Of a stretch of 64,000 bases of DNA, positions 50,495 through 50,591 are shown piece after piece. The notes under the pieces were generated by a model that worked only from the letters and a program-made list of their open reading frames with translations, was not told where the DNA came from and made no database searches. The stretch's first letter is position 1. Each line of letters opens with the position of its first letter. A program made the position numbers and the translations under genes. Origin of the DNA: Escherichia coli (GTDB lineage Bacteria > Pseudomonadota > Gammaproteobacteria > Enterobacterales > Enterobacteriaceae); the NCBI RefSeq assembly GCF_030013595.1, contig NZ_CP122768.1; one strand, given 5' to 3'.

Positions 50495-50591
50495 ATGACC
50501 TCCACATATTGCGTGATGAGCATATTATTTCACGCAAATATTTTGCGCAAGTTGATTTGCTTAACGCGCAATAAAGAAATGTAATAAACGC
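50495..50591. promoter_or_regulatory. immunity operator/promoter region between cro-like and cI-like genes
   Basis: Repeated palindromic half-sites: TTGCGTGA (50509-50516) / TCACGCAA (50530-50537), TTGCGCAA (50543-50550), ACGCGCAA (50564-50571). Confidence 0.5.

Follow-up and report, generated by a model that had tools for sequence, protein, structure and literature searches.

Predicted CI/Cro operators built on a 15-bp dyad on both sides of the repressor gene in an Escherichia coli prophage of the mEp460/SfII/ST64B immunity group

The stretch of DNA analyzed here (the window; 64,000 nt of Escherichia coli contig NZ_CP122768.1, assembly GCF_030013595.1) carries a prophage control region in which a cro-like and a cI-like gene are divergently oriented, and according to the list of open reading frames the spacer between them spans exactly 97 bp (50495-50591). 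The description of the flanking genes as cro-like and cI-like in the original prediction agrees with the reading frames and with the Pfam domains found in them (HTH_3, HTH and Peptidase_S24). A repressor gene for an HTH and S24 protein that diverges from a small HTH-type cro gene across a short control region is the arrangement of a lambda-type switch. The rightward-type (PR) operon begins with the cro-like gene, and the features flanking the control region are as follows.

50494..50234, minus strand: cro-like gene, 86 aa (Pfam HTH_3, E=5.8e-10)
49690-50241, after cro: CII/CP76-like gene (Pfam Phage_CP76)
50592..51284, plus strand: cI-like repressor gene, 230 aa (Pfam: N-terminal Cro/C1 HTH and C-terminal LexA-like Peptidase_S24)
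51305..51322, plus strand: intrinsic terminator of the cI transcript, from a terminator scan

A terminator is annotated at the same place in the SfII record. The CI translation retains the autocleavage residues Ala99-Gly100, Ser144 (GDSM) and Lys181 (VKRL), so that inactivation of CI by SOS/RecA-stimulated self-cleavage is expected. Alignment of the two HTH domains revealed similar recognition helices in Cro and CI (AANISRLE and PATLSRIE, respectively). An Rfam search of the control regions returned no RNA family there. Rfam matches were obtained elsewhere, namely the C4 antisense RNA at 49145-49232 (83.6 bits) and isrK at 49257-49333 (67 bits), both on the minus strand and inside the 5′ part of ORF 48542..49693 (383 aa; Pfam Ash at aa 117-213 and Rha at aa 223-308). 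The arrangement resembles an antirepressor module of the P1 c4/ant or Gifsy-1 IsrK type, located immediately past cII, and the ORF is probably over-called at its 5′ end. Further away, the window contains an Rfam IS009 match at 14891-15089, a tRNA-Gly(TCC) gene at 40535-40609 (minus strand) and three tandem tRNA-Leu(CAG) genes at 60445-60767 (plus strand); since the latter lie beyond the end of the phage homology (~57860), they appear to be host chromosome.

The control module is shared with a series of known phages. At the DNA level it is 97-99% identical to PhiR63_1, mEp460 and phiSTEC1575-Stx2k, 96% to Stx2a_1447/WGPS2 and 90.6% to Shigella phage SfII. CI is 99-100% identical to the repressors of many E. 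coli prophages, 99.1% to that of mEp460 and 96.5% to that of SfII; more distant relatives are ST64B (Sb38) and a ST64B-like Salmonella phage (83.5%), Klebsiella phages (71%), and Citrobacter phage phiNP (68.7%) and Eeyore (67.8%), all with the same architecture as the window. Two database records differ in their gene calls: in mEp460 (JQ182728) cI is annotated to begin 15 codons past the conserved ATG, so that the HTH domain is truncated, and in Eeyore (PP925821) two tiny plus-strand ORFs are annotated over the conserved start of cro on the opposite strand (MQSPLRN...). Neither the SfII nor the mEp460 GenBank record annotates an operator, and we found no published mapping of these operators in the literature on the site sequences or on the operators of SfV, SfII, ST64B and mEp460.

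The original prediction had proposed that four octamers in the cro/cI spacer are OR operators. All four were located on the plus strand between 50509 and 50571.

50509-16, plus strand: TTGCGTGA
50530-37, plus strand: TCACGCAA
50543-50, plus strand: TTGCGCAA, a perfect palindrome
50564-71, plus strand: ACGCGCAA

The TTGCG/CGCAA pentamers contained in this region lie at 50509 (+), 50533 (-), 50543 (+), 50546 (-) and 50567 (-). The pentamer is not enriched window-wide (152 matches in 64 kb, with ~216 expected). The five copies in 63 bp represent the highest density anywhere in the 64 kb, and when 152 sites were placed at random a cluster of at least five was obtained in 2 of 2000 trials.

A repeat search joined 50557-72, 51340-55 and 51364-79 into one direct-repeat family, and TTGC-N7-GCAA has seven matches in the window compared to 2.26 expected, three of them (50557, 51340 and 51364) flanking cI. 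Taken together, the repeat family and the pattern matches define the unit as a 15-bp dyad, TTGCG-N5-CGCAA (TTGC-N7-GCAA), in which the two 5-bp half-sites are one helical turn apart, as expected for an HTH dimer. The motif search for OL-type copies that had been suggested in the original prediction was thereby successful, with copies at 51340-54 and 51364-78, just past the cI terminator. The dyads and dyad positions on both sides of cI, with offsets given relative to the cI ATG, are listed below.

50459..50473: candidate intragenic operator 'O-cro', GTGCGCCTTACGCAC (offset -133; PWM 10.4-10.7, rank 13 in the window)
50509..50523: OR1-equivalent dyad, TTGCGTGATGAGCAT (offset -83; PWM 14.8, rank 4)
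50536..50550: OR2-equivalent position, AAATATTTTGCGCAA (offset -56; PWM -1.8)
50557..50571: OR3-equivalent dyad, TTGCTTAACGCGCAA (offset -35; exact TTGC-N7-GCAA; PWM 16.5, rank 3)
51340..51354: OL1-equivalent dyad, TTGCATATCTCGCAA (exact TTGC-N7-GCAA; PWM 18.3, rank 2; present in all lineages)
51364..51378: OL2-equivalent dyad, TTGCATAATGCGCAA (PWM 20.6, best in the window)

The PWM scores were obtained with a matrix trained solely on dyads from other lineages and then scanned over the 64 kb. Ranks 1 to 4 were taken by OL2 (20.6), OL1 (18.3), OR3 (16.5) and OR1 (14.8), and all four lie within ~160 bp flanking cI. As the training dyads are orthologues of the window sites, this test is not fully independent and the agreement is partly due to common descent. 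In simulated sequences the maximal score per 64 kb had a mean of 14.95, with 22.1 as the highest value. Weaker dyad-like matches were also observed at 48173, 48724 and 48841 (scores 10.8-13.2), together with an exact TTGC-N7-GCAA at 48888; these matches (48173-48902) cluster within ~700 bp, where the Rha gene ends and the replication gene begins, and could be secondary operator sites or chance.

Comparison among relatives provides a footprint of the dyads. A search with the CI protein yielded only 99-100% identical loci, which are uninformative for this purpose; diversity was supplied by a DNA-pattern scan of IMG/VR with the core TTGCGCAAGTTGCTTTGC, which recovered 68 distinct sister regions. 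In alignments of SfII, ST64B-like, Klebsiella, phiNP and Eeyore sequences, the bases of the half-sites are invariant and the dyad centres and spacers are variable, and the same pattern is seen in 30 distinct OR and 55 distinct OL sequences as well as in the 68 distinct sister OR regions from IMG/VR. The offsets of the dyads from the cI ATG are fixed across lineages at -133, -83, -56 and -35, and two further dyads are found at fixed positions ~+54 and ~+77 past the cI stop codon. The control region thus holds multiple related imperfect dyads, as in lambda-type switches. SfII, mEp460, Stx2a_1447/WGPS2 and PhiR63_1 (CI identity 96-99.6%) and the immC region of ST64B (SB38-40; CI identity 83.5%) carry the same module with the dyads at the same offsets, whereas ST64B and SfII differ from the window in the dyad centres and in an OL spacing of 22-24 bp.

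Beyond these lineages the half-sites change. ENT47670 and Fels-1, whose repressors share ~50% identity with CI, retain the 15-bp geometry with the sequences ATGCG-N5-CGCAT and ATGTA-N5-TACAT, respectively, so that changed half-sites go together with diverged CI N-terminal domains. The recognition helices of these two repressors are near-identical and their half-sites differ, indicating that specificity is set partly elsewhere in the domain.

These comparisons bear directly on how the octamers should be read. Taken literally, the original prediction amounts to 8-bp elements that pair into 29-bp palindromes, each forming one operator (TTGCGTGA-N13-TCACGCAA at 50509-37 and TTGCGCAA-N13-ACGCGCAA at 50543-71), and an inverted-repeat search indeed finds perfect 8-nt arms at 50509-16/50530-37 as well as an overall 72% palindrome centred near 50540. 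However, TCACGCAA is confined to the window/SfII/mEp460 group, where it sits in the variable spacer of PR, and is not conserved in the ST64B-like, Klebsiella, phiNP and Eeyore lineages. The 15-mer that ends at this octamer has a PWM score of -0.5 and shows no pairing at the dyad spacing; TCACGCAA is therefore probably not an operator half. Moreover, the OL copies and all sister lineages display 15-bp units, and one HTH dimer cannot reach half-sites 24 bp apart. We thus regard the 29-bp arrangement as improbable. What the comparative evidence upholds is the substance of the operator assignment, with the 15-bp dyad in place of the lone 8-mers and with the partner halves that had been overlooked, AGCAT of OR1 and TTGCT of OR3.

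Three putative promoters, composed of conserved hexamers that match the consensus at 7-8 of 12 positions, overlap the dyads, and all three are backed by the comparison between lineages.

minus strand: predicted PR, -35 TTGCGC (50550-45), 17-nt spacer, -10 TAATAT (50527-22), +1 at ~50515
plus strand: predicted PRM, -35 TTGCTT (50557-62), 17-nt spacer, -10 TGTAAT (50580-85), +1 at the A of the cI ATG (50592)
plus strand: predicted PL, -35 TTGCAT (51364-69), 17-nt spacer, -10 TATCTT (51387-92), directed into the early-left operon and away from cI

In each promoter the TTGC half of one dyad would form the -35 box, which places the dyad centre at about -28. The geometry TTGCGC-N17-TAAYAT of PR is kept across lineages, and the predicted PR leader comprises 21 nt with a GGAGG Shine-Dalgarno sequence (50503-50499) followed by the cro ATG. 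For PRM, the spacing TGTAAT-N6-ATG is kept in five of six lineages (window, SfII, ST64B-like, Klebsiella and Eeyore), with N7 in phiNP. There is no Shine-Dalgarno sequence before cI, which together with the position of the PRM start on the cI ATG predicts a leaderless cI mRNA. The window, SfII, mEp460, Eeyore, phiNP and the Klebsiella phages all retain TATCTT as the -10 box of PL; the ST64B-like phage has a different -10-like sequence. In a generic promoter scan, all three proposed promoters stayed below the threshold; PR, for instance, was not called because it matches the consensus at only 7 of 12 positions. The one plus-strand match of that scan, TCCACA-16-TATTAT at 50501-28, was treated as chance, since its -35 box is unconserved elsewhere and it would give cI a long leader lacking a Shine-Dalgarno sequence.

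The coincidence of three TTGC half-sites with predicted -35 hexamers raises the question of whether the motifs are merely the -35 boxes of PR, PRM and PL, conserved for RNA polymerase. Against this, the GCAA half at a distance of exactly 7 bp shows the same invariance, OR1, OL1 and the dyad within cro are located at no -35 box, and the half-sites change in relatives with a diverged CI N-terminal domain. Conservation for RNA polymerase alone consequently appears slightly less probable still than the 29-bp pairing. Overall, we consider it very probable, judging from the sequence comparisons, that the motifs are the CI/Cro operator sites of a lambda-type lysis-lysogeny switch with the 15-bp dyad TTGCG-N5-CGCAA as the recognition unit, and those in the cro/cI spacer are supported as its right operator.

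Within the right operator, OR1 overlaps the final 2 bp of the predicted PR -10 box and the predicted PR start, and its TTGCG and GCAT are invariant around a variable centre in the lineage alignments and sister regions. OR3 likewise has two invariant halves and a variable centre, and its left half is the -35 hexamer of PRM. The PWM score of OR3 is at least equal to that of OR1, which fits poorly with a lambda-like filling order, although a PWM score is not an affinity. At the OR2-equivalent position, the window retains only the right half, located inside the palindrome TTGCGCAA that also provides the -35 box of PR; the window, SfII and ST64B lineages have lost the left half and carry AAATA in its place. 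Scores at this offset (-56) reach 12.6-14.6 in Klebsiella phages and 8.8 in Eeyore/phiNP, and the 68 sister regions have a median of 14.6, with 85% scoring at least 8. OR2 is thus decayed in the window lineage and a good dyad in sister lineages.

None of the possible central registers in the window (50523-37, 50533-47, 50536-50 and 50543-57, with PWM scores of -0.5, -34, -1.8 and -1.0, respectively) rises above background. The register 50543-57 would resemble lambda OR2, which is centred at -42 of PRM, and has a better match in ENT47670; it was not adopted as OR2, given a score of 4.6 in sister lineages and a distance of only 14 bp from OR3. With OR2 at background (-1.8) and two dyads in OL, the lambda-like logic of three sites with a cooperatively filled central OR2 does not apply to the window. 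The sequence TTGCGCAAGTTG is invariant in the 30 distinct ORs. As a separate observation, the extended block TTGCGCAAGTTG-N-TTTGC (50543-60) is invariant except for one base in ~100 distinct OR sequences, a conservation that includes GTTG at 50551-54 and is greater than the two -35 hexamers together with the half-sites of OR2 and OR3 can account for.

The second operator cluster lies at the early-left promoter beyond cI, ~820 bp from the OR cluster. The left half of OL2 is the -35 box of the predicted PL, and OL1, 24 bp from OL2, is centred at about -52 of that promoter. In the 55 distinct OL sequences, TTGC and GCAA of OL2 are invariant and its centre is polymorphic. Homology with Stx2c phages begins at ~51420, directly after PL, which is the expected place for an edge of the exchangeable immunity module. 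e14, Eeyore, the ST64B-like phage and phiNP have a conserved leader motif, GAACAGGCAGGACGCCCACGAAGT, in common immediately past PL. In the window this position is taken by an unrelated leader of ~630 nt, and no convincing plus-strand ORF precedes the first early-left gene (52021); the leader may represent an RNA element or mark a mosaic junction.

The dyad inside cro corresponds exactly to codons 8-12 (V R K A H); relative to the predicted PR start its centre is at about +50, and the centres of this dyad and OR1 are 50 bp apart. A dyad is present at -133 in every lineage with a median PWM score of 16.9 in the 68 distinct sister regions, the window copy being weaker. Across seven lineages the amino acids encoded by codons 8-12 vary (L/V, S/A and H/Q), and the third positions of codons 8 and 11, which are the G of TTG|CG and of xCG|CA, are invariant; of the 46 third positions in codons 13-58, only 2 are. 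Arg9 is encoded by CGN throughout, whereas Arg6 alternates between CGN and AGA, and third positions that fall on degenerate positions of the dyad vary freely. This pattern of codon choice speaks for DNA-level selection and a genuine fourth operator. O-cro would thus likely represent an auxiliary operator, a roadblock or a looping partner. A more specific model, which we put forward tentatively and hold at somewhat less than an even chance, is a right operator of four dyads, in which O-cro is kept by codon choice (xTG CGN AAR xCG CAN) as a roadblock or short-loop partner ~50 bp downstream of OR1, and the window lineage, with its decayed OR2, would lack the lambda-like cooperative OR1-OR2 pair and possibly positive autoregulation.

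Based on this layout, the switch could operate as follows, whereby we infer binding, order of occupancy, transcript starts, cooperativity and OR-OL looping from the position of the sites. CI dimers, and probably Cro dimers, would recognise the 15-bp dyads via their HTH domains. In the lysogen, CI at OR1 would cover the -10 box and start of PR and block transcription of cro, cII and the replication genes. The OR2 remnant would cover the PR -35 box and help OR1 to block PR; reduced to one half-site, its occupancy would depend on neighbouring dimers. CI at OL2 would cover the -35 box and spacer of PL, with OL1 24 bp upstream as the likely cooperative partner. At OR3, CI would cover the -35 box of PRM, and this position predicts negative autoregulation of cI. 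O-cro would add an auxiliary roadblock or looping partner. SOS-induced self-cleavage of CI at Ala99-Gly100, mediated by Ser144/Lys181, would free PR and PL, and Cro would next bind the same sites and shut off PRM.

The sites might be bound by a regulator other than CI, e.g., a host factor, Cro alone or the CII/CP76-like protein. TTGC repeats are the target of lambda CII, and TTGC recurs here. However, the sites lie to either side of cI, which is the classic OR/OL layout, they are inverted dyads and not direct TTGC-N6-TTGC repeats, and the dyad pattern persists in Eeyore, whose annotation differs downstream of cro, so that another binder is very unlikely. Chance clustering in AT-rich intergenic DNA, to which one could attribute a single PWM score of 15-20 (arising about once per 64 kb of simulated sequence), is effectively refuted by the comparative data, with half-sites conserved in >70 distinct sequences, and is also opposed by the location of the four best matches and by the random placement trials described above.

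The resemblance of the predicted switch to that of phage lambda extends to several features: divergent cI (HTH and LexA-like S24) and cro genes with an Ala-Gly autocleavage site in CI, several imperfect dyads over back-to-back PR and PRM (putative here), a second cluster at the early-left promoter past cI, a leaderless cI mRNA (predicted here), and a centre-to-centre spacing in the low twenties of bp (21-27 bp here). In contrast to lambda, the dyad measures 15 bp (TTGCG-N5-CGCAA) instead of 17 bp, OL has two sites instead of three, OR2 is decayed in the window lineage, and an extra conserved dyad is found inside cro. Lambda OR3 is centred at about -20 of PRM, whereas OR3 here is centred at -28, on the -35 box. 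The cII-like gene of the window belongs, unlike that of lambda, to the CP76 (186-type) family. Phages related to the window are reported to have no N or cIII (PMC3851460).

Similar to 434 and P22, the operators are short dyads with conserved outer half-sites of 4-5 bp and a variable centre, and CI and Cro would share them, but half-site sequence and operator length differ; 434 half-sites read ACAA...TTGT. In the PDB, the sequence that best matches the N-terminal domain of CI belongs to a 434-derived HTH (dh434, E=2e-4), a marginal similarity. The e14 element has the same gene order (YmfK (CohE)/YmfT (CroE)/YmfL) and an S24 C-terminal domain in its repressor, and in the record of a closely related phage the cII-like gene of the window is called 'protein YmfL'. 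We did not adopt e14 as a model or as a member of the same immunity group: the N-terminal domain of YmfK is unrelated, with only S24 aligning, and the e14 control regions contain GTAC-type repeats.

Given the near-identical CI and the same half-site and layout, the prophage groups with mEp460, SfII and ST64B. Of 5426 complete E. coli genomes, 1039 (19%) contain the immunity region, and the module, which mEp460, SfII and some Stx2a-converting phages also carry, appears to define a common E. coli prophage immunity group, with ST64B as a relative. The immC region of ST64B (SB38-40) has been described as a functional immunity module (PMC3901673). Some E. coli genomes carry the region repeatedly, with up to three copies in one genome; hence, co-resident prophages can share repressor specificity. 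That the operators define the immunity specificity of this prophage, as initially proposed, is a reasonable inference from the module edge just past PL and from the joint change of half-sites and CI N-terminal domains.

The operator set is an ordinary and well-supported one of a known kind, and its conceptual novelty is small because the logic is that of lambda; two minor points are likely to interest a specialist, the decay of OR2 and the dyad embedded in codons of cro. Knowledge of the sites could be used for predicting homoimmune prophages, as an orthogonal repressor/operator pair for synthetic circuits, and as a defined target for the induction of Stx2a phages that carry this module.
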